Sequence record: MN850615.1
Origin: Escherichia phage kvi
Reading direction: 5' to 3' (one strand)
DNA length: 64,000 nt
Under the pieces are notes generated by a model. It searched no databases. It was not told the origin of the DNA and worked only from the letters and a program-made list of their open reading frames with translations. Shown in pieces: positions 45-53,579 of the stretch. Made by a program: the position numbers and the translations under genes. Position 1 is the stretch's first letter; each line of letters opens with the position of its first letter.

Positions 45-78
45 AATATATTCCTCAGTGTTTTGTCTTGATGGGAGT

Positions 79-107
79 ATCTTACTACTCACTTAATCCG
101 GTGTCAA
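79..107 (-). promoter_or_regulatory. sigma70-type early promoter (TTGACA-N17-TAAGAT)
   Basis: rc of 102..107 is TTGACA; rc of 79..84 is TAAGAT; AT-rich upstream. Confidence 0.5.
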
Positions 108-301: not shown

Positions 302-330
302 AGTATAGGGGATCGCCGATCCCCTGTCAA
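302..330 (-). promoter_or_regulatory. sigma70-type promoter with palindromic 17-bp spacer (TTGACA-ggggatcggcgatcccc-TATACT)
   Basis: read directly on minus strand; spacer is a near-perfect GC-rich palindrome. Confidence 0.6.
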
Positions 331-552: not shown

Positions 553-581
553 GTGATTCTCCTTTCGTTTGGTATGGTAGT

Positions 582-610
582 ATAATACTACTCCCATTTC
601 TTTACGTCAA
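582..610 (-). promoter_or_regulatory. sigma70-type promoter (TTGACG-N17-TATTAT)
   Basis: rc of 605..610 TTGACG; rc of 582..587 TATTAT. Confidence 0.5.
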
Positions 611-1082: not shown

Positions 1083-1111
1083 TATTATGCAATGATGGAT
1101 TTGTGAAGTCA
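1083..1111 (-). promoter_or_regulatory. sigma70-type promoter (TTGACT-N17-CATAAT)
   Basis: rc of 1106..1111 TTGACT; rc of 1083..1088 CATAAT. Confidence 0.5.
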
Positions 1112-1120
1112 ACAACTTTT

Positions 1121-1152
1121 TAAAATAAAAAAGCCGACCACACGGATCGGCT
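1121..1152 (-). terminator. rho-independent terminator (hairpin agccga...tcggct followed by U-run on minus strand)
   Basis: GC stem at 1131..1152 preceded on plus by aaaataaaaa, i.e. a T-run downstream on minus. Confidence 0.55.
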
Positions 1153-1162
1153 TAATAATCAG

Positions 1163-8127: not shown

Positions 8128-8157
8128 ATAAGTCAACCTTTTGTTTTCGATGGGGAC

Positions 8158-8186
8158 ATTATGATATATCCCCGATCCAGTGTCAA
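8158..8186 (-). promoter_or_regulatory. sigma70-type promoter (TTGACA-N17-CATAAT) flanked by inverted repeat
   Basis: rc of 8181..8186 TTGACA; rc of 8158..8163 CATAAT; inverted repeat ggggac..atcccc brackets the -10. Confidence 0.5.
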
Positions 8187-8493: not shown

Positions 8494-8527
8494 TATTAAA
8501 TCCTCATAAACGAAAAGGGAGACTCCC

Positions 8528-8555
8528 ATTATAGAGAATCTCCCTTGTATGTCAA
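8528..8555 (-). promoter_or_regulatory. sigma70-type promoter (TTGACA-N16-TATAAT) followed by short hairpin and U-run
   Basis: rc of 8550..8555 TTGACA; rc of 8528..8533 TATAAT; gggagactccc at 8517..8527 then T-run. Confidence 0.5.
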
Positions 8556-9115
8556 CTAAAATTTAAAGATGCAAACTCCCCGTGATGAATTTTTGCATAT
8601 TCATCATATGCTCTAGCGGCTTCCTCCTGAGTAGCAAACGATCCTATGTATTTTCTGTATCCGTTTATCCTTATTTGTGCTTGCCACGGTCTTTTGCTAG
8701 ATCCTTTGCGATGAGTAACACCATTATATATGCTCGTGCACCCGTCAATTTTCTTTTTATTGTACATGTTTTGTTGTTGTGTTGCCTCCCGTAAATTTGG
8801 TGGATTGTTGTTTTCTGGATTCCCGTCTATGTGGTCTATTACCTTAACCTGTGTTCCATATTCAAGAAACCAGACAATTCTATGTACAAGATATGTAGAT
8901 GTTCTCTTTTTAACCTTATTGTAAACATCTATTGCCAAATGACCGTAATTTAACTTTTTTGTTTTTACTTTATCACCGACTCGGTAGAAATATCCCTCTG
9001 GTAGACCATTAAAAGACGGACTATTTGTTTTGTGATATAGAACACCTTCCGTGTGTTCAAATCTGCGTTTTAATTCCTCTTGAATTTCAGTATTCCAAAA
9101 TTTCGCACTTTTCAT
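8552..9115 (-). CDS. free-standing HNH endonuclease with C-terminal AP2-like DNA-binding domain (homing-endonuclease-like)
   Basis: HNH-type motif ..HRIVWFLEYG..IDHIDGNPENNNPPNLR..; AP2-like ..RPWQAQIRINGYRKYIGSFATQEEAARAYD..; start overlaps topoisomerase stop (TAATATG). Confidence 0.75.
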   Translation of the reverse strand: MKSAKFWNTEIQEELKRRFEHTEGVLYHKTNSPSFNGLPEGYFYRVGDKVKTKKLNYGHLAIDVYNKVKKRTSTYLVHRIVWFLEYGTQVKVIDHIDGNPENNNPPNLREATQQQNMYNKKKIDGCTSIYNGVTHRKGSSKRPWQAQIRINGYRKYIGSFATQEEAARAYDEYAKIHHGEFASLNFS

Positions 9116-9116
9116 A

Positions 9117-10940
9117 TTATGACGCCATCCATGCCTTCCTCATGTCTGAATCTTCACTATAGAGCAAATCGAATAGCTCTTTATAGTTTTCCGGTAACGT
9201 GATGATCTCCATGACAGGATCGTTGATCACGCGATGATAGTCTGATTCTGTGAGCGATGCTAAACCTTTGATATATCGAATGTTGTAACCTTTGATATTA
9301 TCTCGGTCGGTCTCAAAATCTTCTAGGTCATAATACCATCGAACATCATCACCTTTCTTTGGTTCCGCAATGATAATAGGTGTTTTGATAAACCGGATTC
9401 GTCCATCTTCGAACAATTCAGGCCAACGAGCAAAGAAAGAGATCAGACTAGGTTTAATAGACCCGATCCCGTCAGTATCAGCGTCTGTCATAATCGCAAT
9501 ATTTTTGTATTGCATAACTTCCAATGCATCAACACCAAATTGCAAGCCAGTGATCGCCATGATGTTAAAAATTTCGGCGTTCTTAACGATCTTTGCCTCC
9601 GGTTGTTCCCACGTTGTAAGAGTTTTGCCTCGCAACGGGAAACCTCCATGTAAATCTGGATCACGTACAGAGACCAGATAGTTGATCGCGGAATCACCTT
9701 CCGTCAAAAACAGGGTAGTTTCTGCGTCAGTTCCAATAAGGTTAGCTTTAACGTGTTTTGCTACCTTAGCCCGTTTCGCTGCTTTTGCTACCTTAGTCGC
9801 TGCCGCTTTATCTGCTGCCTCTTTGCGTGCCAGGACTACAGCAATAATAGGCATGATAATGTTTTCTTTCTTCGCAATGACTTTAGCCAGCTTTTTAAAA
9901 TCAAGATCAATATGACGCTTGATATCACCAGTTGGATTAGTCAATCGTTCTTTTGTCTGTGAATCAAAACGAAGGTTAGGCAATTCACGAACAATAAGAA
10001 TACAGGTCAATCCAGACTTAACCGCAGCTTTAGTAACATCAACCTTATGTTCTTTCTTGATTCGTTTTACAATCTCTTCACAAAGATCATCTGTCACGTA
10101 GTCTACGTGTGTTCCCCCGTTTTTGGTAAACAGACCATTAGCAAAGGATACTGATTTAAAACCTTCTCCCTCGACCGCAGGAACTAGGGCAAGTGAAAAG
10201 TTTTTATCTTCAATGACAAACGGATCATCATTGTATAGTTTAGCATAATCCTTGAACTTACTAACAATACGTTTACCATTAAACTTAAACGTGATCTTAG
10301 GAAAGATTACGCTCAATGATTGCAGACGATCATGAACAATATCTAAAACAGAGTTGTCCATCATATAACCTTCGAAGTGGTCGAAGTCTGGGCAAAATGT
10401 AACCTTTGTTCCCTTCAATTTTGATGGTTTCGATGACCATGTGATATTTTCAGCACCGTTTGTACATTGAACGGTCATTTCTGTTTCTCCGTCACAGGTC
10501 ACACCAGTAAACCAATCGCTAAAGAAATTTGACAACGACGACCCCACACCGTTCATCCCTTGCGTTAATCGATTGGTATCATCAAAGTTAGACCCTGCTT
10601 TTGTTCGTGTCCATGCGGCTACAGGTTGCGGAATCTGCGTGCCCTCTGGAGTAGTAACCATATGTTGAGGAATACCGCGACCATTGTCTGTTACCGTAAC
10701 AATATTGTTTTGGATATCGACGCTAATCACATTGGCAAATTCAAAATTAGTGCGAATCGCCTCGTCTACAGAGTTGTCGATGATCTCATCAATGATTTTA
10801 ACCAGTCCTGGAACATATGAAATTTTTGTCCATTTACCGAACAGGAAACGTTGGTGTTCTTCGTAAGTTGTTGATCCTATATACATTCCTGCACGCTTAA
10901 GGACATGTTCACGATCAGATAAAATGCGAAACTCACTCAT
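9117..10940 (-). CDS. 39: DNA topoisomerase II large subunit (GyrB-like ATPase and TOPRIM; T4 gp39 and gp60 equivalents fused)
   Basis: 607 aa; N-terminus ..ILSDREHVLKRAGMYIGS.. is the GyrB signature; single uninterrupted ORF. Confidence 0.9.
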   Translation of the reverse strand: MSEFRILSDREHVLKRAGMYIGSTTYEEHQRFLFGKWTKISYVPGLVKIIDEIIDNSVDEAIRTNFEFANVISVDIQNNIVTVTDNGRGIPQHMVTTPEGTQIPQPVAAWTRTKAGSNFDDTNRLTQGMNGVGSSLSNFFSDWFTGVTCDGETEMTVQCTNGAENITWSSKPSKLKGTKVTFCPDFDHFEGYMMDNSVLDIVHDRLQSLSVIFPKITFKFNGKRIVSKFKDYAKLYNDDPFVIEDKNFSLALVPAVEGEGFKSVSFANGLFTKNGGTHVDYVTDDLCEEIVKRIKKEHKVDVTKAAVKSGLTCILIVRELPNLRFDSQTKERLTNPTGDIKRHIDLDFKKLAKVIAKKENIIMPIIAVVLARKEAADKAAATKVAKAAKRAKVAKHVKANLIGTDAETTLFLTEGDSAINYLVSVRDPDLHGGFPLRGKTLTTWEQPEAKIVKNAEIFNIMAITGLQFGVDALEVMQYKNIAIMTDADTDGIGSIKPSLISFFARWPELFEDGRIRFIKTPIIIAEPKKGDDVRWYYDLEDFETDRDNIKGYNIRYIKGLASLTESDYHRVINDPVMEIITLPENYKELFDLLYSEDSDMRKAWMAS

Positions 10941-11884: not shown

Positions 11885-12127
11885 TTAAATATCCTCCGCG
11901 ATATGCCGGAACAACTCCAGATCGTTTTTATCCAGAATGAAACCGCTACAATCAATAATCCCGTTACCGTAATTATCGGTTAACAGTCGTTCCGTTGCCA
12001 TGTATGCGCGTACTTTGTTGTTAAAATTCATTACATGTTGTGCATAGTCACAATGAATCTTTTGACGGTTCCACGCGACAATTGATTGTAGATGTATTAC
12101 ATTAGCCACATTATTAATAACAACCAT
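11885..12127 (-). CDS. hypothetical protein (80 aa, MVVINNVANV...)
   Basis: track ORF 11885..12190 trimmed to ATG at 12127, which overlaps the upstream small ORF stop (TGATATG). Confidence 0.45.
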   Translation of the reverse strand: MVVINNVANVIHLQSIVAWNRQKIHCDYAQHVMNFNNKVRAYMATERLLTDNYGNGIIDCSGFILDKNDLELFRHIAEDI

Positions 12128-12360
12128 ATCAAAACCCTCGCTTAGTGGAATGTTCTGACATTTTATTGATACATACAGCTTGGTAGTCACGAGATTTTTT
12201 TGACGAATTAAGAGCTACGGCCAAAAAATCCTGTAACTGTTCGTTTGTCATTGTTGGCTTACACCGCGTATCTAAACTCTTCTTTCTTCTAGCTTCATTA
12301 GCCATATCAAAACCCTCGCTTAGTGAAATATTCGATCATTTTATTGATACATTCAGCTTC
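12124..12360. repeat. two copies of a ~57-bp direct repeat (12124..12183 and 12302..12360, roughly 85-90% identical)
   Basis: read directly: ccatatcaaaaccctcgcttagtg..attttattgatacat.cagctt in both copies. Confidence 0.8.
12129..12305 (-). CDS. small ORF (58 aa) ending ..CINKMSEHSTKRGF
   Basis: hand-translated; not in track; C-terminal 20 codons are a diverged copy of the next ORF's 3' end. Confidence 0.35.
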   Translation of the reverse strand: MANEARRKKSLDTRCKPTMTNEQLQDFLAVALNSSKKSRDYQAVCINKMSEHSTKRGF

Positions 12361-15510: not shown

Positions 15511-15543
15511 AATAAAAAAGCCTCCAATCTTTCGACGGGAGGC
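15511..15543 (-). terminator. rho-independent terminator between the -10 of promoter 15544..15572 and the start codon at 15510
   Basis: stem gcctcc/ggaggc (15520..15543) followed on minus by T6. Confidence 0.5.
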
Positions 15544-15572
15544 ATAATAAAACCATTATAGAGTAGTGTCAA
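15544..15572 (-). promoter_or_regulatory. sigma70-type promoter (TTGACA-N17-TATTAT)
   Basis: rc of 15567..15572 TTGACA; rc of 15544..15549 TATTAT. Confidence 0.5.
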
Positions 15573-20550: not shown

Positions 20551-21621
20551 TTATGCTAACATATCTTCGATTTCTTTGTCAACTGCTTCGTCGCTGATCA
20601 CTTGCCCCAGCTTATAATGATCGTTGATTGCTTCGTTAAACTTATCGTTTGTCAGAAGTGGTTTCCAGAACTCAATGCTATTGGTTTCTTTAGCACGGAA
20701 CTTGCGTTCTTCGGTTTCCATCTCTCCGGTCTCGGTATTTAGGATTGAACGAGAATACCAGCCGTTTGACGGTTTCACTACCCAGCCTAACTCTACAGCC
20801 AATTCCAGCAACCCGGAATAAGGATCGATACCACCGCTAAATGTTACGCTAATCGGGAACTTAGATTTTTCTTTAACGGTTCGTGATTTTTCCGCATTCA
20901 GGATAAAATCATAACCAGTAATTTCGGTTCCTTCTTTCTGCTGACGACGACCAATAATGAAAACTTCATTGGCTGAATACATCGCGCCCGTACCGCCGGA
21001 CATAACGGTCTTACTAAACATTTCTTGCGTTTCGTAAGTGTGGTTAATAGCGATGCACGGGATATCATTCATAGTCAGATACGGCGTAACCATACGGAAC
21101 AAGCCTTTAAGTGCTTTAGCTCGCGTCATATCCTGCGCTGATTTCTCATTAATCGCGTCTTCAACTTCTTTTTTGCTTGCTAAGTTACCGATTGAGTCAA
21201 TAAAGATGATCACTTTATCTTCACGGGTAATTTGCTCAAGCTGGTTCATGATTTCAAATTTCAGTTCTTCGATGTTCTTGATTGGAACATGCACCACGCG
21301 ATCAGGATCTACACCCATAGATTCAAGATAAGCGGACGTAATACCAAACTCAGAATCAAAGAACAAGCACGCCGCATCAGGATTCTGTTTCATGTATGCA
21401 CTAACGCAAGTTAATCCCATGTTTGATTTAAAGTGCTTAGACGGACCAGCAAAGAAAATCAGACCAGATTGAAAGCCTTTTTTAAGATCACCTGAAAACG
21501 CAATATTCAGCATCGGGATCTTAGTGCGAGTATTTGTTTTTTCGTTAAAGAAGCTGGATTTAGACAGTACCGCAGTAGTTTTCAGGGTAGAGTTCTTTTT
21601 CAGTTTTTCCAGTACAGACAT
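20551..21621 (-). CDS. uvsX: RecA-like recombinase
   Basis: 356 aa; ..FAGPSKHFKSN.. Walker A and extended match to T4 UvsX as recalled. Confidence 0.9.
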   Translation of the reverse strand: MSVLEKLKKNSTLKTTAVLSKSSFFNEKTNTRTKIPMLNIAFSGDLKKGFQSGLIFFAGPSKHFKSNMGLTCVSAYMKQNPDAACLFFDSEFGITSAYLESMGVDPDRVVHVPIKNIEELKFEIMNQLEQITREDKVIIFIDSIGNLASKKEVEDAINEKSAQDMTRAKALKGLFRMVTPYLTMNDIPCIAINHTYETQEMFSKTVMSGGTGAMYSANEVFIIGRRQQKEGTEITGYDFILNAEKSRTVKEKSKFPISVTFSGGIDPYSGLLELAVELGWVVKPSNGWYSRSILNTETGEMETEERKFRAKETNSIEFWKPLLTNDKFNEAINDHYKLGQVISDEAVDKEIEDMLA

Positions 21622-21632
21622 TATTAATACCT

Positions 21633-21860
21633 CTATTCAGTTAATCCGTAATACTTTAATTGCTTCATTGTTATTCGATCTTTGTAGTGCTCTTGAATTA
21701 ACTTTTTCATCGCATCAACATCGATCGTCACAAATACTTCGTTGCTGTGATTTCCGTGAACTTTCTTGAAATGCTCTATGCCTTCCTCACGTTCACGTTT
21801 AATCTTTTCAATGTCTCTCATCGTATATTTCTCACGTTGGCGGGTATCGTCACCCAACAC
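21633..21860 (-). CDS. hypothetical protein (75 aa)
   Basis: track ORF. Confidence 0.45.
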   Translation of the reverse strand: MLGDDTRQREKYTMRDIEKIKREREEGIEHFKKVHGNHSNEVFVTIDVDAMKKLIQEHYKDRITMKQLKYYGLTE

Positions 21861-21882
21861 CCGCCATTATACACACTTTATC

Positions 21883-23359
21883 TTAAATGTCAAACAGGTC
21901 AGTCAGAGAAGCAACTTTCTCATATTGCAGCTTTGCAGCCGTGGTAATGTTCTCCAGTGGTTTGACGAAAGTCTTATTAAACAACAAAGGCCAGTCTAAC
22001 CACTTTAACACCTCTGATTCAATTTCTGGAGGAATACGAGTACCGGACAACCAACCAAAACAGATTTCTCCAAACGGATTTCGATCTTTCAGCGGTACAA
22101 TCATAACCTTCTCGCCCTCACGAATTGGATCTAGTCCGAATTTTCGAGCATTACGATTATAACACAATACACTCTTAACCGCATACGGACAACCCTTAAT
22201 CGGATACCCGTTTGAATCGCTGTATTTCTGTAGGTTGTTTGCAGATGATACCGCAGCAACCTCAAGATAATCAAGTTTTCTAAATTCTTGCTCAAAAATA
22301 CCGTAGTATTCCTGCAATGACTCTTCACCTTCCTGCAACATACGGCGAATACATTCTTTCAGTGATTTCTGACATGCTTTAGGGGTGGAGCTACGTTGCG
22401 TTTCCAAGCCCATGATTTTTAGCTTAGGTTCAGCAAAGCGCGTTCCTTCCATATCCCAAACATTAAGAGCATAACGCTTTTTGCCAGTCCAGAATCCACC
22501 GATACCCGCAGATTTCAACGGAGGACCAGCAATTGCCTCACGGTCCATAAACATCAAGTGCTCATAGTTGTTCATGTACTCGCATAACTCGCGATATCCC
22601 TTGTCGATAATAGGTTCCATTCGATGTTTACCGAAATTATCAAGGAAGTCAACAAGTTTTTCGGTATCGTCGAAACGGTCTTCCCCGCCAACCTTATCAA
22701 CAACATTGTTAACCAGCACATAAACGGAGTCAGTATCACAATAACGAACATATGCAAAATCGGTTGTTCCGCAAAGCTCGTTTAAGTATTCGTTAATCTT
22801 ACGCTCAATCCACTGAATTGCAAGCTGACCAAACAAGGTGATCGCACTAGCGTTACGGAGATCATAAAAACGGAATTTAGGATTCCCCAACGCACCATAA
22901 AGGGAGTTGATCAAAACTTTTCGAGAAAGCTGGTTTGTATTGCACAAGATCGACTCGTCTTTACATTCTTCCAGCAATTTCTCTAAGGCATCTTTACTTA
23001 ATTCAGAAAGCATCGATTTAAACGCTTCATCAAAGTCGTGACGTACTTCAACGCTATAGCTAATGGTTCCCCCATAAACATGATTTTCATCGTGTAGAAT
23101 CGCTTTACAGAGTTCAGCATTGCGATCACATGCCAACATCATGTTTTTGTACTGCTTACGCTGATCGAATACCTTTTTAATCTCAATCGGTACGATACCG
23201 TGAATATCTTTTCTATACATCCATCCGTTAGGAGAGCAAGAATACTCATCACTCGGACGTGGTGCAGTTTTATTGATATACTCGTGCATCGGTGCAGCAT
23301 CAAAAGATCCGGCGATTGTTTCCGGCGAAATGTTAACCTGACGGATGATTGATGGATAC
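21883..23359 (-). CDS. 43: DNA polymerase (family B), exon 2
   Basis: track ORF 21883..23289 extends upstream in frame to 23359 (..YPSIIRQVNISPETI..), continuing exon 1; exons together give about 892 aa. Confidence 0.85.
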
Positions 23360-23499
23360 CATTATGTTCAGCGCGGTTCGCTACTCCCGCGCCCGTTCTC
23401 TTACGAACTGCTACATGTCACCATGTAGATCAGACTATATCACATTCTCATAGAGAATCCTGCCATTTCGAATCGCTTGATTCTACTCTACTCGGTTCG

Positions 23500-24324
23500 T
23501 TACCCTTTCGATAGTCGTTGAACAACTGCATCTTTAAGCTCATTTTGATCAAACGGTGTTCTCTTACAGTACCCGCTATAATTCTTAGCAAAAGGTTTCT
23601 TCTTACCAAAGATCTCTTTTCCTGAATTATGTGATTCAACAAGAAAATTCACCATTTCATCAAATGTGAAACTTGCAAATTTAGCATAAGTTTCATTACG
23701 TTTTGACATTATTTTACTCATAACTTCCGGTCGTTTAGACGCTGAATTTTCGCGTTTCTCGCCAGTATTAAATGATACCAACTCACCGGAAACATATCTA
23801 GGATCATCACAACTAACTCTAAACCGATTTCCTTCCTTATCCTTAACGATAACAGTATTCTTTAGCTTTTCTGCCATAGAATCAAGACCTTTTCGTATAG
23901 TGTCCTCATCAGCCCCGAAATATTTCTTTCCGCTCATATCGGTTCTGGCTTTTCCGGTCTTGTTTTCGGATATTTTCAGTCTAACTTCCTCTCGCTTGGC
24001 TGGGTTATTGTCTCCAGCGAATGCATCTTTGGTTAACGCCTTCACTTTATCGTCATAAGATCCTCTAGAGATGAAAGCATATGCTCTCTTGCATTCACCG
24101 TTATTGAATATTAAGCACAATAACCGATGCGCCTCGACGTGGTCTTCAAACTTAAGCCTAACAAGATTCCATTTATCTAACCGATATTCAGGGAACATTG
24201 ACTTCGGGCATATATGATGCACCTCGGAATATTCTTCACCCTGATACGGATTAGACACCAGTTTAATGTAGTCGTTTAATGCTTCCTCGTTATGTATTTC
24301 GTACTTTCTTAAAATGTCTTTCAT
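23500..24324 (-). CDS. intron-encoded HNH homing endonuclease (274 aa from MKDIL...)
   Basis: HNH motif ..EVHHICPKS..WNLV..H..H; GGAGG SD before ATG at 24324; TATAAATA upstream. Confidence 0.8.
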   Translation of the reverse strand: MKDILRKYEIHNEEALNDYIKLVSNPYQGEEYSEVHHICPKSMFPEYRLDKWNLVRLKFEDHVEAHRLLCLIFNNGECKRAYAFISRGSYDDKVKALTKDAFAGDNNPAKREEVRLKISENKTGKARTDMSGKKYFGADEDTIRKGLDSMAEKLKNTVIVKDKEGNRFRVSCDDPRYVSGELVSFNTGEKRENSASKRPEVMSKIMSKRNETYAKFASFTFDEMVNFLVESHNSGKEIFGKKKPFAKNYSGYCKRTPFDQNELKDAVVQRLSKG

Positions 24325-24347
24325 CTCGCGCCTCCAATGTATATCAA

Positions 24348-24355
24348 TATTTATA
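24348..24355 (-). promoter_or_regulatory. T4-type late promoter motif TATAAATA upstream of the intron ORF
   Basis: rc of 24348..24355 is TATAAATA, about 24 nt upstream of the HNH start codon. Confidence 0.55.
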
Positions 24356-24473
24356 TACATTATAAGACACGTTAGCTCAAAATGCAACTGCTGCTGATTG
24401 TCTCCTTAGAGATTTCCCAGCAATTAAGCAGGTTATTCGATCACTGTCACCAGTGAAAGCCCCATATCAGTTT

Positions 24474-25675
24474 AGGGAAGTAAGGTCAAAGCTCATCATC
24501 CAACGGTAAGCATTCGGCACAGGTTCTTTTACGAATGCGCCTGGATACGTCTGCTTAGGCTGTATCTTATTTTCCGGTACTACTTTACCCTCAGCTTTCA
24601 GAGATCCGAAGATAATAGCATCCCATACTTTCATCGGGTTATAAACATGGTTAAATTTAATCTTTGCATAGAAACATAGACTATACACCAGATCGATAAA
24701 TCCACGCTTTTTATCAATCGCCAGCACACGATCAACGTCGCCGATGTTATAATCGATGTAAAGTTGATGGTTGTCATCACGCAATTTCTTTAACGGACCA
24801 TCATAATCAACCTTACCGATTCCTGTCTCATATTCAGCAACATAATCTAACGCATATGTTGGTTGAGTCGTAAAGCTAAATTTCTTGTATAGGTCAATAT
24901 AATCAAGGCTTTCGATCCCCATGATCGTAAATGCTTCACGCTCGTTGCCAAAATCATCCTGTGAGATTCGGGATTTAATCTTACCGCACGGGCTTAGACG
25001 GTTAGCGGTTCTACTTCCGAACTTATTACTGATACGTTTAATGATATATGGAATATCGAATGTTTCTGTGTTCCAGCCAGTGAAACCAACGGGTCGGTTT
25101 TCCTCAAAGAATCGGATGTATTCTAACAGCAATTCATCTTCTGTGTCATAGACGTTATAAACAACGCGCTCTACAATATCAGGTCGAAGAATAGACTTGC
25201 TAGATTCCCAGATTTCACCGTTTTTTCCTTTCAAATCAAATACAAAGAAACGATCATGTACGGAATCATAATGCGTAATTGCATCGATAGGATATTTCGC
25301 TTCTTCTGGTTTAGGAAATTCTGGGGCAGTGACCTCGATATCAACCCATGCTACACGGATTTTATTTCGGTCATATCGAATCTCTCCTTTATACGTATCA
25401 GACAGATAGGAGATGATAAAATCATCCATCCCTAGCGCCTCTTGCCCCATTTCTCCCATCTTTTTACGCCATTTGTTGGCCTCGTTCATAGAGGGGAATT
25501 TTTTAGCAATGCAAGGCTTGCCATAGATATCTTTATAATTCGTAACCATACCAGGCGCGGCATGATGAAATAAAGTTGGCGTATATTCAACGTAACGCTC
25601 TTGTTCTTGTCCAGCATCATCAATATAACGCTCGTAGATCTTATCACCTACTCGCTCACATGACAGAAAATACAT
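24474..25675 (-). CDS. 43: DNA polymerase (family B), exon 1
   Basis: 3'-5' exo motifs (..VAWVDIEV.., ..YNIGDVD..); ATG at 25675 with AAGGAG SD; in-frame TGA lies 7 nt inside the intron. Confidence 0.85.
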
Positions 25676-25707
25676 AATATAAACTCCTTCACTTACGAAA
25701 GACACTC

Positions 25708-25736
25708 ATTATAGGGGAATCGACTTAGTTTGTCAA
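25708..25736 (-). promoter_or_regulatory. sigma70-type promoter upstream of gene 43 (TTGACA-N17-TATAAT)
   Basis: rc of 25731..25736 TTGACA; rc of 25708..25713 TATAAT; gggg/cccc flank the spacer. Confidence 0.55.
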
Positions 25737-25757
25737 TACCCCTATCCCATCAGTATC

Positions 25758-27739: not shown

Positions 27740-28429
27740 TTAGTCGGTGTAGCTGGAGTCAAGGTCACACGCGATCATATAAGATACGGTTTCACTTGCC
27801 AGCCATACAGCCTTACGGCGAGTGAAGCTCAGTTTGTAATCGCCGAAGTCAGTAGCAACCAGTTTCATGTTATCTTTACGAATAAAGAAATGGAAGTCTG
27901 CGGTTCCGGTATATTCGCCCATATCAAGACAAAACATCTCATTAGGATTATTTTTGTCAATCTCTTCCCAACCTTTGATCATCAGACGACCATCAATCGG
28001 AAGAAATTCAAGGCGATCCACTTTAAGCTGATTGCTCATTTTCATAAGCTGTTTCAGATCGTCGTTGCTCAGTTCGTAATCTACATCGCTTGCAGGTGGA
28101 GTAACTCGGCCTTTCGGTGATACGATAGCAGCAGCACTAGCACCAGGGTAATTAATTTTCAGACGATCATTAGACACACGAATGTTTCCGGTGCGGTCAT
28201 CAACCGTAATATCTGCTTCATCGCCTACCAGATTCAGAATACCCAGGAAAGAGTTAAGATCATAGATCCCGATTTCGTGTTCCAGTTCTTGATTCAGAGT
28301 CGCTTCACCATATACAACGTTTGTCATGTTTTTGGTGATTAGGACGTTTCCTTTTTTCAGGATGATACCTGGGTTAATAGCGGAAAAGTTTTTCATGGTA
28401 GCAATGGTTTCTTTAGTCAGTTTCATCAA
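27740..28429 (-). CDS. 45: sliding clamp
   Basis: 229 aa; N-terminus ..TIATMKNFSAINPGIILK.. recalls T4 gp45. Confidence 0.9.
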   Translation of the reverse strand: MMKLTKETIATMKNFSAINPGIILKKGNVLITKNMTNVVYGEATLNQELEHEIGIYDLNSFLGILNLVGDEADITVDDRTGNIRVSNDRLKINYPGASAAAIVSPKGRVTPPASDVDYELSNDDLKQLMKMSNQLKVDRLEFLPIDGRLMIKGWEEIDKNNPNEMFCLDMGEYTGTADFHFFIRKDNMKLVATDFGDYKLSFTRRKAVWLASETVSYMIACDLDSSYTD

Positions 28430-32524: not shown

Positions 32525-32553
32525 AGTATAACGGGGATTTCTCCCCGCGTCAA
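32525..32553 (-). promoter_or_regulatory. sigma70-type promoter with hairpin spacer (TTGACG-cggggagaaatccccgt-TATACT)
   Basis: rc of 32548..32553 TTGACG; rc of 32525..32530 TATACT; spacer holds ggggag/ctcccc inverted repeat. Confidence 0.55.
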
Positions 32554-33579
32554 CTAACTTTTTGCGCTATTTACCTCGGCTAAAAGTTCATCAGAAATAC
32601 GCTTGACCGCCGCAAGTTCTTCCGGTTCTAGGTTTTGTTCTTCCAGATATTCATATACCATCTGAATAGTGCTTTTAACTTCAATAACACCTGTTTCCTG
32701 TGATGCGCTACTCTCCAGTTTATGGACCACTTTTAGCTTGTGTACAACGGCCTCTAACGCGCTTTCTAACTTAGTTAACCCATTATCAGCAACCGTTGCA
32801 ATAAGACGCACACTAAGCCCCTTAAAGCGTTCTACATCGATTTTATCATCTGACGGGTAAGTGATACGCACATGATAAGTTTTGTCATTCTGGATAAACT
32901 CTTTTTTGTGTGTATCGGTATCGAATACCCAAAACCCACGCGGATCGTTTTCGTCACCCGCCGTTAGTGTGTATGGTGTACCGATATACGTTACATTACC
33001 GCCATCGCTGATAGTATGAAAATGACCGGAAAACACTTCACGGTATTTCTTGAGGAAGTCCGCGCTATAACCTTCGGATTTTAGCCCTTTATAGAAATAG
33101 TAACCGGACAATTCCCAATGGCCTACACAATATTCGCTGAATGAGTTTTGAATAAACTCTAAAATCTCTGATTTATTGTCATCACAAAACCACGGGAACA
33201 GATCAAATGATACACCATCAAAGGTAACTGTTTCCGGTTTATCGATAACCTTAATGCAATCATACTGGCTTAACACTTCACGCGGTGCGTTAGGCTGGAT
33301 CTTGTTTCGTTTAAACATATCATGGTTCCCGACCGTGATATAACAAGTAATTCCAGCCTCTTCCAGTAATGGGATGACCTTAGTACGGTTAAATTTCATG
33401 GTTTCATGGGTAATTGCTTTTCGGCAATCAAACCAATCCCCTGTTTGAATCCATGTCTTAATATTATGCTCTTTGGAGTATTCAACCGCCTTCTTGATGG
33501 TATCAAGAATATACTCATGCACCCACGGATCATCGCCACCGATACCAGTATGCAGATCACCTAAAAGCAAAATTTTCAT
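32554..33579 (-). CDS. 47: recombination nuclease subunit (Mre11/SbcD-like phosphoesterase)
   Basis: 341 aa; phosphoesterase motifs ..LLLGDLH.., ..GDWFD.., ..GNHD.., ..GHFH.. Confidence 0.9.
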   Translation of the reverse strand: MKILLLGDLHTGIGGDDPWVHEYILDTIKKAVEYSKEHNIKTWIQTGDWFDCRKAITHETMKFNRTKVIPLLEEAGITCYITVGNHDMFKRNKIQPNAPREVLSQYDCIKVIDKPETVTFDGVSFDLFPWFCDDNKSEILEFIQNSFSEYCVGHWELSGYYFYKGLKSEGYSADFLKKYREVFSGHFHTISDGGNVTYIGTPYTLTAGDENDPRGFWVFDTDTHKKEFIQNDKTYHVRITYPSDDKIDVERFKGLSVRLIATVADNGLTKLESALEAVVHKLKVVHKLESSASQETGVIEVKSTIQMVYEYLEEQNLEPEELAAVKRISDELLAEVNSAKS

Positions 33580-33669
33580 AGTCTCTTCCTCTCTTCGTTT
33601 TCGATGCTCTCACTATATCACAGAAAAATAAAAAGGGAAACCCCTTTCAGAGTCTCCCTTATAAAGCCA

Positions 33670-39972: not shown

Positions 39973-40002
39973 AGTATAGGGGATCGCGAGATCCCCGTCA
40001 AG
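39973..40002 (-). promoter_or_regulatory. sigma70-type promoter with palindromic spacer (TTGACG-ggggatctcgcgatcccc-TATACT)
   Basis: rc of 39997..40002 TTGACG; rc of 39973..39978 TATACT; palindromic spacer. Confidence 0.55.
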
Positions 40003-41124: not shown

Positions 41125-41152
41125 CATTATACATTAGCTAATCATGTTGTCA
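41125..41152 (-). promoter_or_regulatory. sigma70-type promoter (TTGACA-N16-TATAAT)
   Basis: rc of 41147..41152 TTGACA; rc of 41125..41130 TATAAT. Confidence 0.55.
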
Positions 41153-41161
41153 ACACCCCAA

Positions 41162-41190
41162 AACGAAAAAGCCGACCCTTTCGGATCGGC
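41162..41190 (-). terminator. rho-independent terminator after nrdD
   Basis: hairpin agccga..tcggct followed on minus by TTTTTCGTTTT. Confidence 0.6.
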
Positions 41191-41196
41191 TGAAAT

Positions 41197-43598: not shown

Positions 43599-43652
43599 AA
43601 TATAATCCTCTCGTTGTTAAGTGGGAGTATTATAGCATACTCCCTTCGCATG

Positions 43653-44831
43653 TCAAACACTAACTTTTTTCTTTACTGCTTTCACCTTCTGGCGAATTGC
43701 TCGAATCTCTTCGATCTCTTTTTCAGTCTCTTTAACAATTTCTTTGCGATTCTGAATATCTGTATCGAGATTATCATCAAGTTTAGGCAGCATGTCAATC
43801 AAGAACTTTTTAAGGTCTTTCAGGTTTCGAATAACAGCACCTTCGCCCATTACCGCAACACCCACACCATCCGGCAGATCACCAAACAGCTTAACCAGTT
43901 CAGACAGATGATCATGATCTTCTAGTGCTTCTTCCGGTTCAGATGGCAGTTCAACAAAGTTATAACGTTCATCATTGCTGATCAAGTGATACCAGCAAAG
44001 CCCGAAAGATTTCGGTGTATATTCTACACCATCAATTTCAACCGCGTCAACACTTCCATAATCATCTACTTTAGTTACCTTAAATCCTTGTCCCAGCTTT
44101 TGAACAATTTCAACAACATGACTTGATACAGTTTCAGCGGTAAACCAATATGGCAAATTATGCTGATTTGGCTTGTAGCGTTCACCTACTTTAAATCTCT
44201 GACCATCCGCTTGCATAGCATGAAATTGTTGTTTCGTGATTTCCGCGAAGTATTCAAATTCGCTACCGTCAAACAAGCAATTCCATTGATCACAAAAACG
44301 ATCTGCCTTAACGGTTTCACCTTTCGCGGTGATCATGGTAGCTGATCCGTGCAATTCTTCTTCAACTAAAAAGCCATATTCGACAAAATCAACAAGTTTC
44401 ATGGCTTCTTTGTGCTCTGGGTCATGCTCTCCCCAGAATCGCTTAAATTCTTGCAAACCTTCTGGGGTAAACGAATAACATTTACCTTTTTCAAAGTAAG
44501 TCGGCATTGCATCCTCTTTCTTGTTCATCGCTTCGTATGCCTCTTTTGAGATACGTTTAAAGTATTTGCGCTCATTGTGCATAATCATAGTAGACCAATA
44601 ATAAACGATATCCTCAGCGGAATAAACTACATCTCCAGCTTCAATAGTAATAACATGACCGTGGTCATCTTTTTCTAATACTTTAAAGCCCTTTTCTACG
44701 ATTTCAGCAACCCGAATATGACCACGGCGCGAAGCATCGGTCAGAATAATTGAATAGCGAGAAAAGTCTAGAAACTCATCTTTACCGCCTTCACGGAATG
44801 CATAGTAATGACCTTCAAAGAATTTAGCCAT
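43653..44831 (-). CDS. large member (392 aa) of the paralogous ..EIDG.. family
   Basis: contains ..VDAVEIDGVEY.., ..ERYNFVEL.., ..NERKYFKRI.. and helical tail. Confidence 0.5.
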   Translation of the reverse strand: MAKFFEGHYYAFREGGKDEFLDFSRYSIILTDASRRGHIRVAEIVEKGFKVLEKDDHGHVITIEAGDVVYSAEDIVYYWSTMIMHNERKYFKRISKEAYEAMNKKEDAMPTYFEKGKCYSFTPEGLQEFKRFWGEHDPEHKEAMKLVDFVEYGFLVEEELHGSATMITAKGETVKADRFCDQWNCLFDGSEFEYFAEITKQQFHAMQADGQRFKVGERYKPNQHNLPYWFTAETVSSHVVEIVQKLGQGFKVTKVDDYGSVDAVEIDGVEYTPKSFGLCWYHLISNDERYNFVELPSEPEEALEDHDHLSELVKLFGDLPDGVGVAVMGEGAVIRNLKDLKKFLIDMLPKLDDNLDTDIQNRKEIVKETEKEIEEIRAIRQKVKAVKKKVSV

Positions 44832-44887
44832 AATATAATCCTCTCGTTGTTTAGACGGGAGTATCTTACTACTCCCGTTTCATCATG

Positions 44888-45472
44888 TCAAGCGTTAAAT
44901 GACTTTTGGATCTCTTTCAGTTCAGCTACTTTATCGGCGCTGAATTTAGCGTAGGCATCATGTCGAATAATTTCACTTTCAAGAAAGGTTTCCAGCCGAG
45001 ATCTATTTTCAATAAGGAACTCTTTCAGGTCTTCCGCGTTCTTGATAAAGATTTTATTGTCGGTAATGTCATCTTCAATCGCAAAGGAGATAGAGCGAAC
45101 TTTACCAAACAAGTTAATCAGATCTTCCAGCGATTCTTCATTCTTAACTGGTTTCATTTCTTCAAACTGCTTTTTAGTGATGCGTTTAAAGTATTTGCGC
45201 TCGTTTGCAGCAATCAGAACAGATGCACCTTCATACCCATGAGTTTCTACCAGATACACACGCCCCATCGCATCAACAGTGAGAACTTTAAAGCCGTTAC
45301 AAAGCACGTCATACAAGAACTTATTATGTTGCGGACATCGTTTGATAAATTCTGCGGCTGTTTCTGCATTACGGAAAGTGTAATAACGACCTCGTTCAAA
45401 AACAGCATCATTTGAAGACTTAGCCGGATACAATTTATACGTTTTCTGTACCATAATATAATCCTCTATCAT
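44888..45472 (-). CDS. paralogous family member (194 aa)
   Basis: shares ..NGFKVL.VDAMG.. and ..ANERKYFKRITKKQFEEM.. with 43653..44831. Confidence 0.5.
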   Translation of the reverse strand: MIEDYIMVQKTYKLYPAKSSNDAVFERGRYYTFRNAETAAEFIKRCPQHNKFLYDVLCNGFKVLTVDAMGRVYLVETHGYEGASVLIAANERKYFKRITKKQFEEMKPVKNEESLEDLINLFGKVRSISFAIEDDITDNKIFIKNAEDLKEFLIENRSRLETFLESEIIRHDAYAKFSADKVAELKEIQKSFNA

Positions 45473-45801
45473 TTCACTAATTGAACAGCACGGAACAGAA
45501 TGCGCTCACACGGAAGCAGCATAAATTCCCAACGCGGATCAAAGTCTTTAGCGGTGTATGTTTTCCCATCAACCGAGATTTCACTTACATAACCAACAGG
45601 TGACACTTTAAGAACAGTAAACCCATTCTTGATGACTTCGTAAGTATCTTTCACCCCTTCGTATTCATCATCTAAGAAGTCTTTATGTGCTTGCTCAGAT
45701 TTAAAAACATAGGCCACACCGGATTTAAACATCTTACGCATTGTTGATTCTCCTTCTTGATTAGATGGGAGTATTTTACTACTCCCATTTCTTATTGTCA
45801 A
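45469..45801 (-). CDS. paralogous family member (110 aa)
   Basis: ..NGFTVLKVSPVGYVSEISVDGKTY.. pattern. Confidence 0.45.
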   Translation of the reverse strand: MTIRNGSSKILPSNQEGESTMRKMFKSGVAYVFKSEQAHKDFLDDEYEGVKDTYEVIKNGFTVLKVSPVGYVSEISVDGKTYTAKDFDPRWEFMLLPCERILFRAVQLVK

Positions 45802-46596: not shown

Positions 46597-47405
46597 TCTA
46601 CGTTAGTTACATAAACTTCTTGCGTATCAGAAGACTTGCCACCTGAACGATCTAGGCAATAGGTCTTATTCAACAGGACGCAGTTTAGATCATTCCGCTT
46701 GATAAAGTCAAGAAGATGATCATTTACCTTTCCCTTATGATGCGTGACATTACTGATACCAAACTGAAAACCACGCGCCATAATAGATTCTACCCACTGA
46801 TAGAATTTAATCTCTTCCTCGTCACTCCAGAACTTATTATATTCCGCAGAAGTGATAAGATACGGCGGGTCCAAATAAACGAAATCACCTGGCAAGATCT
46901 CGATCTCGTCATAGCGACCAGACGTAAAACTGATTCGACCGTCTTTGTTTTCTTCCTTAAAATTCAGGACACGCTCTACCGCGTTTTCGTTAAAAGTCCG
47001 GCGACCAAAATTAGCATTAAATTCGCCCTTCCGGTTATGGCGGTTAATGTTGCTAAAACTATGCTGAATCAACACAAACAGCGATAGCGGATCTGGATTC
47101 TCGTTATACTTCTTACGGAATGTCATGTAAGCGTCTTTATCTTCGCGAGACAAACCATTTTCGGCAATAATCCGCTTGATCGTAGAAACCGGATCAGGAC
47201 ACTCGTCAATGGCCTTGTAAGCGTCAATTAATTGGTGATCATAGTCATTAGCCAGCACATCCCCTTCGACGTACAGAGACACGCTCAAGCCGCCACAAAA
47301 GGCATCAACAAAGCGGTTATAGTGCTTAGGGAAATACTTACTAACACCTGGTAATAGCTTTTCCTTATTGCCAGTATAGGGAATTAAACCTAATGCTTTC
47401 TTCAT
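46593..47405 (-). CDS. dam: DNA adenine methyltransferase
   Basis: 270 aa; motif I ..FVDAFCGGLSV.., motif IV ..DPPY..; recalls T4 Dam. Confidence 0.9.
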   Translation of the reverse strand: MKKALGLIPYTGNKEKLLPGVSKYFPKHYNRFVDAFCGGLSVSLYVEGDVLANDYDHQLIDAYKAIDECPDPVSTIKRIIAENGLSREDKDAYMTFRKKYNENPDPLSLFVLIQHSFSNINRHNRKGEFNANFGRRTFNENAVERVLNFKEENKDGRISFTSGRYDEIEILPGDFVYLDPPYLITSAEYNKFWSDEEEIKFYQWVESIMARGFQFGISNVTHHKGKVNDHLLDFIKRNDLNCVLLNKTYCLDRSGGKSSDTQEVYVTNVD

Positions 47406-48654: not shown

Positions 48655-48999
48655 TTATTTCACGTTAACGCCGTCATCAATCCAGCCGACGCTATTTGGT
48701 TTAACAGTTTTACCATAGGATGCATACTTAATCAAGCATGGTTTAACATCATTATCAAATCTTCCTAAACGTACCCCAAGATCAGGAATATCCATGTATG
48801 CGGCTTTATATCCCCATGTACAATATTCAGCATCAATCTCGACCGGGCGGCCTTTAAAAGCATATACTACACCGTGACGGTCAACGATAACATAGCAATA
48901 GCCAGCCGGAAGATACACAGTTTCGCCGTAAACTTTAACTGGAGTAGCAGAAGAGATAAACATAATATAATCCTCACATCGTTCATTTGATGCGGTCAT
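48655..48999 (-). CDS. hypothetical protein (114 aa)
   Basis: track ORF. Confidence 0.45.
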   Translation of the reverse strand: MTASNERCEDYIMFISSATPVKVYGETVYLPAGYCYVIVDRHGVVYAFKGRPVEIDAEYCTWGYKAAYMDIPDLGVRLGRFDNDVKPCLIKYASYGKTVKPNSVGWIDDGVNVK

Positions 49000-49032
49000 T
49001 ATATGATAACCGCATTTTCATGTCAACAGTTT

Positions 49033-49672: not shown

Positions 49673-49701
49673 AGTATAGGGGATCACCGATCCCCTGTCA
49701 A
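49673..49701 (-). promoter_or_regulatory. sigma70-type promoter with palindromic spacer (TTGACA-ggggatcggtgatcccc-TATACT)
   Basis: rc of 49696..49701 TTGACA; rc of 49673..49678 TATACT. Confidence 0.6.
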
Positions 49702-51718: not shown

Positions 51719-51748
51719 ATTTGATTCTCCTTAGTTGGTATGGTTATC

Positions 51749-51776
51749 ATTATACGGGGATTTCTCCCCGTGTCAA
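51749..51776 (-). promoter_or_regulatory. sigma70-type promoter with hairpin spacer (TTGACA-cggggagaaatccccgt-TATAAT)
   Basis: rc of 51771..51776 TTGACA; rc of 51749..51754 TATAAT. Confidence 0.6.
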
Positions 51777-51779
51777 CAA

Positions 51780-52001
51780 TTAAATGATCTCTGCTTCACC
51801 GTTAAGGAAGAAAGACCATGTTTTGTTAGGATAACGAAGCGCCCACGATTCAGCAGTTTTAACACCAGCTTCGAACAATTGACGGCTGGTTACTTTAGCC
51901 ATACCATCTTCGATGGCAACGTTTTCAATAATCATCGGGTACTTAGCGCCACGCATGAAACCGAAGCCAGCGGAAGATTTGATAATTTTAACAGTTGCCA
52001 T
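51780..52001 (-). CDS. hypothetical protein (73 aa, MATVKIIK...)
   Basis: track ORF 51780..52055 trimmed to ATG 52001 with AGGAGAATCAAAA leader. Confidence 0.5.
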   Translation of the reverse strand: MATVKIIKSSAGFGFMRGAKYPMIIENVAIEDGMAKVTSRQLFEAGVKTAESWALRYPNKTWSFFLNGEAEII

Positions 52002-53281: not shown

Positions 53282-53310
53282 ATTATGCTATACCCTATTC
53301 CGGTTGTCAA
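53282..53310 (-). promoter_or_regulatory. sigma70-type promoter (TTGACA-N17-CATAAT)
   Basis: rc of 53305..53310 TTGACA; rc of 53282..53287 CATAAT. Confidence 0.5.
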
Positions 53311-53315
53311 CACCT

Positions 53316-53346
53316 AAAAACGAAAAAGCCACCCTTTCGGATGGCT
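53316..53346 (-). terminator. rho-independent terminator immediately upstream of the promoter
   Basis: hairpin agcca..tggct with U-run TTTTTCGTTTTT on minus strand. Confidence 0.55.
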
Positions 53347-53579
53347 TTTGATTATATTTTATTCACGTCCATTTGTATAGTAGTGTTTGAATCGACCTTT
53401 GCTAAACTAGTTAAACATAGTAACCAATTCACCATCCCTTTCCAATGATAACCCTTCCTCGTCTTAGACGGGTCTTCCGATTCGGTAGTAATTGAACACG
53501 CGAAAGTATGAGGAAGCCAAATAGTTGTGTTAATGCTAGTATTCTTTTACTTCTGGTATGCATCCCACGGTGACTAACA

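Follow-up and report, generated by a model that had tools for sequence, protein, structure and literature searches.

Why should the spacer between the two boxes of a sigma-70 promoter be filled by a GC-rich palindrome? The question is raised by positions 302..330 of a 64,000-nucleotide stretch of DNA from Escherichia phage kvi (MN850615.1), which is referred to here, at its full length, as the window. On the minus strand of this locus, a TTGACA -35 box (330-325) and a TATACT -10 box (307-302) are separated by a 17-nt spacer (324-308) that is a hairpin from end to end, GGGGATC-GGC-GATCCCC. The whole cassette extends from about 350, where an AT-rich tract (AAAAATTAAAAATAGTTG) lies, to the ATG at 270; its hairpin folds at about -12 kcal/mol and its 41-nt context at -14.6 kcal/mol (z = -2.6). 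The minus strand is the coding strand of the window. A preliminary description of this DNA had noted the same arrangement before many minus-strand genes, with a palindromic spacer in several copies, and had likened it to the 'promoter-early stem-loop' cassettes of T4-type phages.

Promoter-early stem-loops (PeSLs) were defined on phage RB49 and its sibling phi1 as a sigma-70 consensus promoter with an AT-rich upstream tract and a polyG/polyC stem-loop (Arbiol et al., 2010, Genome Biol Evol 2:140, PMC2839356). Five subclasses are distinguished by the position of the stem-loop, the commonest being those in which it lies between the -35 box and the -10 box or overlaps the -10 box, and the count was 52 PeSLs for phi1 and 51 for RB49, most of which precede ORFans in hyperplastic regions (PMC2839356). 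The RB49/phi1 consensus has been given as 'TTGACA...N17...TATAAT' with 'GN-loop-CN' (Comeau et al., 2014, PMC4122927). The interest of PeSLs lies in their insulating and driving the numerous small early "ORFan" genes of T4-type phages.

Hairpins in promoter spacers

The pattern TTGACR-N16-18-TANNNT has 39 matches in the window, 38 on the minus strand and one on the plus strand, against 5.5 +/- 2.4 expected and a maximum of 12 in 100 dinucleotide shuffles, which bears out the claim that such promoters stand before many minus-strand genes. All six spacer palindromes reported in the preliminary description were confirmed, each flanked on the minus strand by a TTGAC(A/G) -35 box and a -10 box resembling TATAAT; the positions first given for the two CGGGGAGAAATCCCCG copies were shifted by one base and the others were exact. 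The six cassettes are as follows.

330..302, minus strand: spacer-class PeSL, TTGACA GGGGATCGGCGATCCCC TATACT
49701..49673, minus strand: spacer-class PeSL, TTGACA GGGGATCGGTGATCCCC TATACT
51776..51749, minus strand: spacer-class PeSL, TTGACA CGGGGAGAAATCCCCG TATAAT, with hairpin CGGGGA-GAAA-TCCCCG and a 16-nt spacer
32553..32525, minus strand: spacer-class PeSL, TTGACG CGGGGAGAAATCCCCGT TATACT, also present in RB49
40001..39973, minus strand: spacer-class PeSL, TTGACG GGGATCTCGCGATCCCC TATACT, with hairpin GGGATC-TCGC-GATCCCC
64000..63972, minus strand: spacer-class PeSL, TTGACA GGGGAGGATAACTCCCC TACAAT, with hairpin GGGGAG-GATAA-CTCCCC

The upstream portion of the last of these (63972..64000) is truncated by the end of the window. 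The hairpin at 32553 is the same as that at 51776, and the two loci are non-orthologous. The -10 box lies 25-42 nt from the start of a gene in 6/6 copies, and the ORFs that follow encode 50-96 aa. The six copies match the sigma-70 consensus at 10-12 of 12 bases, and their spacer hairpins, at -11.6 to -12.8 kcal/mol, dominate the local folding (-13 to -15 kcal/mol per ~40 nt, z -2.0 to -4.4).

A chance origin of the spacer hairpins was ruled out by shuffling: of 74 promoter-like spacers, six have a folding energy of -9 kcal/mol or below, and 2000 spacer shuffles gave a mean of 0.019 and a maximum of 1. The palindrome GGGGATCNNNGATCCCC alone has two copies in the window, with 0.00 expected. A hairpin of -10 kcal/mol or below accompanies 18/29 promoters located within 70 nt of a gene start vs 3/45 intragenic look-alikes (Mann-Whitney p = 1e-5); the hairpins mark genuine intergenic promoters. 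An unsupervised repeat search of the window returned the same cassettes as its top dispersed repeat families (D1-D4). A scan of the whole window against Rfam at gathering thresholds matched no family; no curated RNA family covers the hairpins.

Positional classes and identity as PeSLs

The hairpin-capable spacer is real, but the palindrome, probably a stem-loop of terminator or attenuator type that overlaps the promoter, is not tied to the spacer as such, and elsewhere in the window it lies over the -10 box, over the -35 box, upstream or downstream. We catalogued 38 sites in the window at which a promoter precedes an ORF and its Shine-Dalgarno sequence; 25 of these sites carry a hairpin of -9 kcal/mol or below. 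All five PeSL positional classes were found, with six copies in the spacer class, 8-10 in the -10-overlap class, three upstream, about five downstream and 1-2 in the -35-overlap class. Cassettes outside the spacer class include the following.

57916..57950, minus strand: -10-overlap PeSL with the -10 box in the loop, TTGACA ..GGGGGTAG TAATAT ACCCCC
63269..63307, minus strand: -10-overlap PeSL with a CATAAT -10 box, GGGTGTATAG CATAAT ACACCC
48990..49026, minus strand: -10-overlap PeSL, ATGCGGTTATCA TATAAT GACCGCAT
45765..45801, minus strand: -10-overlap PeSL, ATGGGAGTAG TAAAAT ACTCCCAT; GGGAGTAG-TAAAAT-ACTCCC
44855..44891, minus strand: -10-overlap PeSL, ACGGGAGTAG TAAGAT ACTCCCGT
43623..43656, minus strand: -10-overlap PeSL, GGGAGTATGC TATAAT ACTCCC
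8515..8555, minus strand: -10-overlap PeSL of -20.7 kcal/mol, then a T-rich tail; an HNH-AP2 homing-endonuclease ORF adjoins the -35 box
8149..8186, minus strand: -10-overlap PeSL with a CATAAT -10 box
574..610, minus strand: -10-overlap PeSL with a weaker stem (-6.2 kcal/mol)
75..107, minus strand: -10-overlap PeSL with a degraded stem (-3.8 kcal/mol)
41126..41191, minus strand: upstream-class PeSL, canonical terminator AGCCGATCCGAAAGGGTCGGCT-TTTTCGTTTT, then TTGACA-16-TATAAT
53282..53349, minus strand: upstream-class PeSL, terminator AAAAGCCATCCGAAAGGGTGGCTTTT, then TTGACA-17-CATAAT
1084..1153, minus strand: upstream-class PeSL, terminator AAGCCGATCCGTGTGGTCGGCTT-TTTTATTT, then TTGACT-17-CATAAT
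15520..15572, minus strand: downstream-class PeSL, TTGACA-17-TATTAT, directly followed by GCCTCCCGTCGAAAGATTGGAGGC-TTTTTT
21838..21893, minus strand: downstream-class PeSL that follows gene 43, TTGACA-16-TATAAT and, next, a hairpin of -21.4 kcal/mol, GGCGGGTGTTGGGTGACGATACCCGCC
25708..25743, minus strand: -35-overlap PeSL before gene 43, with arms GGGG..CCCC that span the -35 box and spacer

The hairpin crosses the -35 box at 25736 and 36564; it stands upstream, in the AT-rich tract and in the form of a textbook terminator with T-runs, at 41153, 53310 and 1112, and just 3' of the -10 box at 15572, 21893, 11030 and 27762. The likeness between cassettes exceeds the promoter and takes in an A/T-rich tract ending ..AGTTG before the -35 box, the start-site sequence CATCRAnAC and the ribosome-binding site AGGAGAATCAAAATG. 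The UP-like tract that belongs to the PeSL definition is found as AT-rich sequence directly 5' of the -35 box, for example AAAAATTAAAAATAGTTG, CATAAAAAAGTTG and AAAAAATTTAAAATAAATGC. The intergenic gaps that house cassettes measure 54-75 nt, and strong cassettes number 13 in the 39-64 kb region of small hypothetical genes vs seven in the replication-gene block at 9-39 kb.

The window shows 97-99% identity to 58 Krischvirus records, and over its first 6 kb and the part from 39 to 53 kb the range is 95-99%. The records are all from RB49-like coliphages, among them RB49, phi1, JSE, GEC-3S and ECD7 (RB49 is classified in Straboviridae; Krischvirus). The window is collinear with RB49 through rIIA, 39, dexA, dda, 61, 41, uvsX, 43, 45, 46, 47, 55, nrdG/D, 49 and dam, and the collinearity continues beyond dam in a run of small hypothetical genes. 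Inspection of the phi1 sequence placed AAAAAGTTG-TTGACA-GGGGATCGGTGATCCCC-T-TATAAT at the PeSL211/210 locus, whose stem-loop is identical to the palindrome at 49695-49679, and TTGACA-GGGGATCACCGATCCCC-TATACT at the PeSL206/205 locus, which is the cassette type of the window with its loop reverse-complemented. The suggested link to the PeSLs of T4-type phages is upheld by both lines, an RB49-like genome and the palindromes of two experimentally tested phi1 PeSLs. The window further has the sigma-70 promoter oriented to the downstream gene and the G(n)-loop-C(n) stem-loop, and its cassettes are intergenic, end in the Shine-Dalgarno sequence and start codon of a small gene and are denser in hyperplastic regions. 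The elements of the window are very probably PeSLs, the regulatory cassettes of composite build that RB49-like T4-type phages carry. Such elements have been described and experimentally characterized before, on identical sequence, and their recognition here is a correct rediscovery rather than a new finding. Raw sequence, read without tools, can suffice to find a genuine and previously published element of regulation and recombination, and one more Krischvirus genome is added to the PeSL catalogue.

Promoter function, probable termination and hairpin variation

An intergenic cassette of ~60-100 bp comprises the upstream gene's stop codon, a UP-like tract rich in A/T, the promoter, G(n)-loop-C(n), CATCRAnAC and the Shine-Dalgarno sequence AGGAGAATCAAAATG, followed by the next small gene. 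The TTGACA-N16-18-TATAAT promoter would be read early in infection by the unmodified host RNA polymerase, and in six copies the stem-loop is packed within the 16-17-bp promoter spacer. In read-through RNA from the preceding gene, the stem-loop would serve as a terminator or attenuator and would insulate each small early gene as a separate unit; transcripts from the cassette's own promoter would, from the geometry, be without the hairpin. Where the hairpin lies upstream of the start, as it does in four classes (spacer, -10-overlap, -35-overlap and upstream), it would be transcribed only in read-through RNA. In the downstream-class copies at 15572, 21893 and 11030, the hairpin begins 0-3 nt after the -10 box, so that a start ~7 nt past this box falls in the 5' arm and the cassette's own transcript would lack a complete hairpin. 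Two copies depart from this: at 27762 a transcript from the start would include nearly all of the hairpin, and at 20582 the hairpin is well downstream. A hairpin confined to read-through RNA would allow a single intergenic gap of 55-75 nt to combine the terminator of one gene with the promoter of the gene after it.

Published experiments bear on both halves of this arrangement. PeSL206/205 gave ~13,000 Miller units of lacZ, and other clones survived only with point mutations in the -35 or -10 box (PMC2839356). A passage of PMC1524935, citing Desplats 2002, states that early 5' ends of RB49 were mapped in accord with the PeSL promoter consensus. The preliminary description had made its reading depend on transcription starting downstream of these elements, and the literature, as far as that passage of PMC1524935 and the activity of PeSL206/205 (PMC2839356) go, answers in its favour. 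By analogy with the phi1 promoter, the cassettes of the window appear to be strong host-polymerase promoters. Placed between a strong promoter and lacZ, the stem-loop of PeSL211/210 cut expression as strongly as rrnB T1; this is the sole terminator assay in the literature and concerned one stem-loop in a plasmid reporter (PMC2839356). By the same kind of analogy, the stem-loop probably lowers downstream expression in the phage as well. We infer the read-through-only logic and the termination efficiency of the spacer class.

The sequences that follow the hairpins give this termination role its most serious rival, in which the spacer hairpins would be 3'-end protectors, or processing or pause sites, that stabilize the upstream mRNA, the drop in the reporter having some other cause. 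None of the six spacer-class copies has a U-run (at least 5 T in 8) after the hairpin, the tails being TATACTAA, TATAATGA and TACAATAC, and a consensus terminator scan of the minus strand called none of the six, which therefore lack the form of a canonical intrinsic terminator. The hairpin tails of the spacer class and of most -10-overlap copies (UAUACUAA, UAUAAUGA and AUCGAAAC) likewise have no canonical U-tract. The upstream- and downstream-class copies carry T-runs and were called by the scan as textbook terminators, suggesting two functional grades. We nevertheless regard this alternative as rather unlikely: the GGGGATCGGTGATCCCC stem-loop, identical to 49695-49679, is the one that reduced lacZ to the rrnB T1 level (PMC2839356), and the A/U-rich -10 sequence (UAUAAU/UAUACU), which would form a weak RNA:DNA hybrid, may replace the U-tract.

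The letters of the PeSL hairpins vary. The stems occur as GGGGATC/GATCCCC, GGGGAT/ATCCCC, GGGGAG/CTCCCC and CGGGGA/TCCCCG, with pairing kept among paralogues and orthologues alike, and the loops as GGC, GGT, ACC, CACGT, CGCGT, GAAA, GATAA, TCGC, GCGA and GGGA, and the G4/C4 ends are constant across copies. Hairpins are kept at orthologous sites in seven relatives while their loops differ. In this comparison structure is conserved and sequence is not. A MAFFT alignment of 12 spacer-class promoters has shifts of stem register and loops of 3-5 nt, so that its columns are not a structural alignment.

An operator, with the G4...C4 inverted repeat as the binding site of a dimeric protein from phage or host that tunes or shuts early promoters or targets recombination, would sit where these palindromes sit, in the position of a classic repressor site, and would explain the conserved GGGG...CCCC ends. 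We think it improbable, however, with no candidate binding protein identified. The inner stem and the loop differ among copies, the loops being even inverted between orthologues, and stem length and register are variable; stems that vary with pairing retained, around loops that are free, favour a hairpin over a sequence-specific operator. The hairpins over the -10 and -35 boxes, upstream and downstream also better fit a structure read in RNA or single-stranded DNA. Least credible of all is the view that genome compaction makes terminators and promoters interleave by chance in gaps of only 54-75 nt, the position of the hairpin, which varies among five classes, having no selected function: six perfect 6-7-bp stems exactly fill the spacer vs 0.02 expected, stems are kept at orthologous sites in seven relatives with changing loops, the same architecture recurs in unrelated viral contigs, and such compaction is compatible with the PeSL explanation and no substitute for it.

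The loop inversions are exact. The loop at 40001 is TCGC in the window and GCGA in six relatives, and GGT and ACC, again reverse complements, coexist among the GGGGATC...GATCCCC copies. Template switching at a palindrome in DNA, or the processing of a cruciform there, would produce such loop inversion. Quasi-palindrome template switching resembles the differences between PeSL hairpins in this exact reverse-complementing of the loop; it is a mutational side effect and no functional family. Exact inversions between orthologous hairpins suggest that the palindromes may extrude in DNA. A role in Dam methylation for the paired GATC of three palindromes was considered and rejected: the GATC count of the window is ordinary (371 observed vs 352 expected), and the other three palindromes are without GATC.

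Gene exchange, distribution and comparison with known systems

PeSLs have been proposed as linkers that shuffle genes between phages, which makes them relevant to the turnover of host-range and anti-defence genes. Cassettes alike over tens of bases are also patches of homology, and recombination between them would delete, insert or swap the flanking small genes among related phages. Indels were sought by comparing 50 kb of the window with RB49 and 15 kb with phi1, GEC-3S, phiS, JSE, PHB13 and pEJ01. About ten indels of at least 100 bp were found, and this comparison with related phages, which had been suggested as a check at the outset, placed PeSLs at the junctions of three of them; with PeSLs covering ~5% of the window, this is a modest enrichment in a small sample (binomial p ~0.01). 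About five of the ten go back to homing endonucleases, or to paralogous ORFs or Shine-Dalgarno regions that recombined, and not to PeSLs. Homing-endonuclease insertions are located at nrdC/dam and nrdD, after gene 47 and inside gene 43, and the HNH-AP2 ORF (Pfam HNH_3, 5.9e-14; AP2, 1.3e-5, below the Pfam gathering score) is inserted adjoining the -35 box of PeSL 8555.

Two of the loci are clear new instances: the cassette of the gp38 adhesin and an ORF next to it, each gained or lost exactly at PeSLs. RB49 has the order stop-terminator-gp38-terminator-TTGACA..TATAAT-ORF078. The corresponding site of the window has a stop codon, then the spacer-class PeSL 51776 and then the ORF078 homologue, with the gp38 adhesin cassette absent, and the similarity between the window and RB49 restarts inside PeSL 51776. 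Phage phiS is without exactly the ORF and cassette between PeSL 52069 and PeSL 51776; its junction joins the promoter of 52069 to the ORF after 51776 in the shared Shine-Dalgarno/start segment AGGAGAATCAA-ATG. This arrangement matches in full the product of excision that the published mini-circle model predicts, and the indel pattern as a whole is consistent with the published model of PeSL shuffling.

The exact pattern TTGACR-GGGGATC-N3-GATCCCC-TATAMT was found in IMG/VR only in two Krischvirus-sized contigs, one of which has five copies. A looser pattern, with G4 and C4 imposed at the spacer ends only, was found in ~35 IMG/VR contigs, mostly unrelated to Krischvirus and including 357-366-kb jumbo contigs, one family of ~50% GC and one of ~60% GC, none of these with an isolate match, and in 17/19 distinct spacers the stem is longer than the four imposed pairs. 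In megablast searches of non-Krischvirus contigs with spacer-hairpin promoters against phage isolates, contigs L016 and L047 had no match, L041 matched only at a tRNA and L038 corresponded to a Synechococcus T4-like phage (83% over 13%). We suggest, tentatively, that the spacer hairpin may be a convergent and widespread design of virulent phages, not limited to T4-like ones, and that palindrome extrusion could aid recombination directly.

Among known systems, the PeSLs of RB49 and phi1 are the closest: the window matches them in genus, promoter, AT-rich tract, GN-loop-CN stem-loop, spacer subclass, position before small ORFans and association with indels. Nothing essential differs, and the window phage has its own cassette complement, as where RB49 has a terminator, gp38 and an upstream-class PeSL and the window has the spacer-class PeSL 51776 instead. 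The PeSL and PmSL elements of PST/T4 and nt-1/KVP40 are likewise composites of a promoter and a stem-loop in hyperplastic regions and associated with gene exchange (PMC4122927). However, their promoters are diverged (TTTACW..TAYWAT; TTGYVH..TAWWAT) or are MotA-box middle promoters, whereas those of the window are of the RB49 type, and their stems are AT-richer (A3-4G3-loop-C3T3-4; AGNA-loop-TCNT; PMC4122927). Lambdoid-phage morons (Hendrix et al., 2000) and the gene cassettes of integrons resemble PeSLs in that a small accessory gene brings along a promoter and a terminator of its own, a comparison drawn by Arbiol et al. (PMC2839356). Integrons, however, depend on a dedicated integrase and attC sites, whereas PeSLs have no known recombinase and the promoter and hairpin themselves are the proposed substrate for recombination.

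Gene gain and loss at promoter-early stem-loops

Promoter-early stem-loops (PeSLs), in which a sigma-70 early promoter is combined with a stem-loop, mark several places where the window and its relatives differ in gene content. In RB49, phi1, JSE, GEC-3S, PHB13 and pEJ01, a gp38 tail-fibre adhesin cassette of ~0.9 kb lies between the homologues of ORF080 and ORF078. The cassette is absent from window 51742-51780, where a spacer-class PeSL, with its hairpin between the -35 box and the -10 box, occupies the junction; at this site several further Krischvirus records have the same arrangement as the window, each matching in a single piece. Close by, ~283 bp between two cassettes, comprising one small ORF and the minus-strand PeSL 51776, are missing in phage phiS (window 51731-51978 compared with phiS locus 10577-10613), and the deletion junction falls in a common AGGAGAATCAA-ATG segment. 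The phiS deletion represents a naturally occurring case of excision from one PeSL to another.

The exact spacer cassette GGGGATC-N3-GATCCCC is found in five copies (loci L002, L003, L005, L006 and L007) in one uncultivated Krischvirus-like contig of 150 kb, IMGVR_UViG_3300045988_033703, compared with two in the 64-kb window, and the copy number of this sub-family therefore differs between close relatives. Two 58-nt direct repeats, 178 nt apart and 90% identical, are present at window 12124-12359, and the segment that they enclose has a single copy in RB49; the dexA-dda region of small ORFs thus appears to contain a short tandem duplication.

Homing-endonuclease genes and the interruption of gene 43

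Relative to RB49, the window carries a 590-bp insertion at 8556-9145 that codes for a homing endonuclease. This insertion separates gene 39 from the cassette that follows, and its 3' end adjoins the -35 box of the minus-strand PeSL 8555. A second insertion, of 1.1 kb, replaces 12 nt of RB49 at 23359-24485 and breaks gene 43, which encodes the DNA polymerase gp43 and is a single ORF in RB49. The ORFs concerned are as follows.

8573-9115, minus strand: HNH_3 + AP2 homing endonuclease (Pfam; the AP2 match scores under the gathering threshold)
24467-25705 and 21883-23289, minus strand: gene 43 ORFs flanking the insertion
23500-24387: 295-aa ORF inside the gene 43 insertion

The gp43 of this phage thus appears to be split into parts of 412 and 468 amino acids. 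The motif 'EVHHICPKS...HVEAHRLL' in the 295-aa ORF suggests an HNH-type homing endonuclease; a Pfam search of this ORF gave no match, and Rfam detected no group I intron. At window 33576-33580 and 46598-46600, free-standing HNH homing-endonuclease genes of relatives have no counterpart in this phage, namely RB49 p040, which follows gene 47, and a 0.73-kb gene that GEC-3S, phiS, PHB13 and pEJ01 carry between nrdC and dam.

Properties of the hairpins

Hairpin loops are exactly reverse-complemented between orthologues or paralogues with the arms unaltered (TCGC versus GCGA; GGT versus ACC), both at window 39979-39996 and on comparison of 308-324 and 49679-49695 with the phi1 locus (32-101). This pattern suggests that the loops were inverted when the DNA palindrome underwent template switching or cruciform processing. 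Half of the six spacer palindromes (302-330, 39973-40001 and 49673-49701) contain two GATC sites, one per arm. The phage encodes a Dam methylase, with the dam homologue at about 46600-47400; GATC is not over-represented across the window (371 observed, 352 expected).

The hairpins at 57913-57938 and 45763-45790, which hold the -10 hexamer in the loop, are followed by T-rich tracts on the plus strand, where they are called terminator-like, and may have a further role in ending antisense transcription, although neither has a plus-strand gene nearby.

Spacer-hairpin promoters in other viral contigs

Consensus sigma-70 promoters with G4...C4 spacer hairpins also occur in ~35 non-Krischvirus viral contigs of IMG/VR (loci L016-L054), which include contigs of 357-366 kb and GC-rich families. 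Examples are listed below.

L041, 1986-2014
L028, 3983-4011
L016, 12006-12035
L047, 5803-5832

Repeated 'CCCCACAG-TTGACA-GGG' promoters are found in L016, L023 and L042, and L028 and L041 additionally have the class with the -10 box in the loop and the CATCRAC start-site context.
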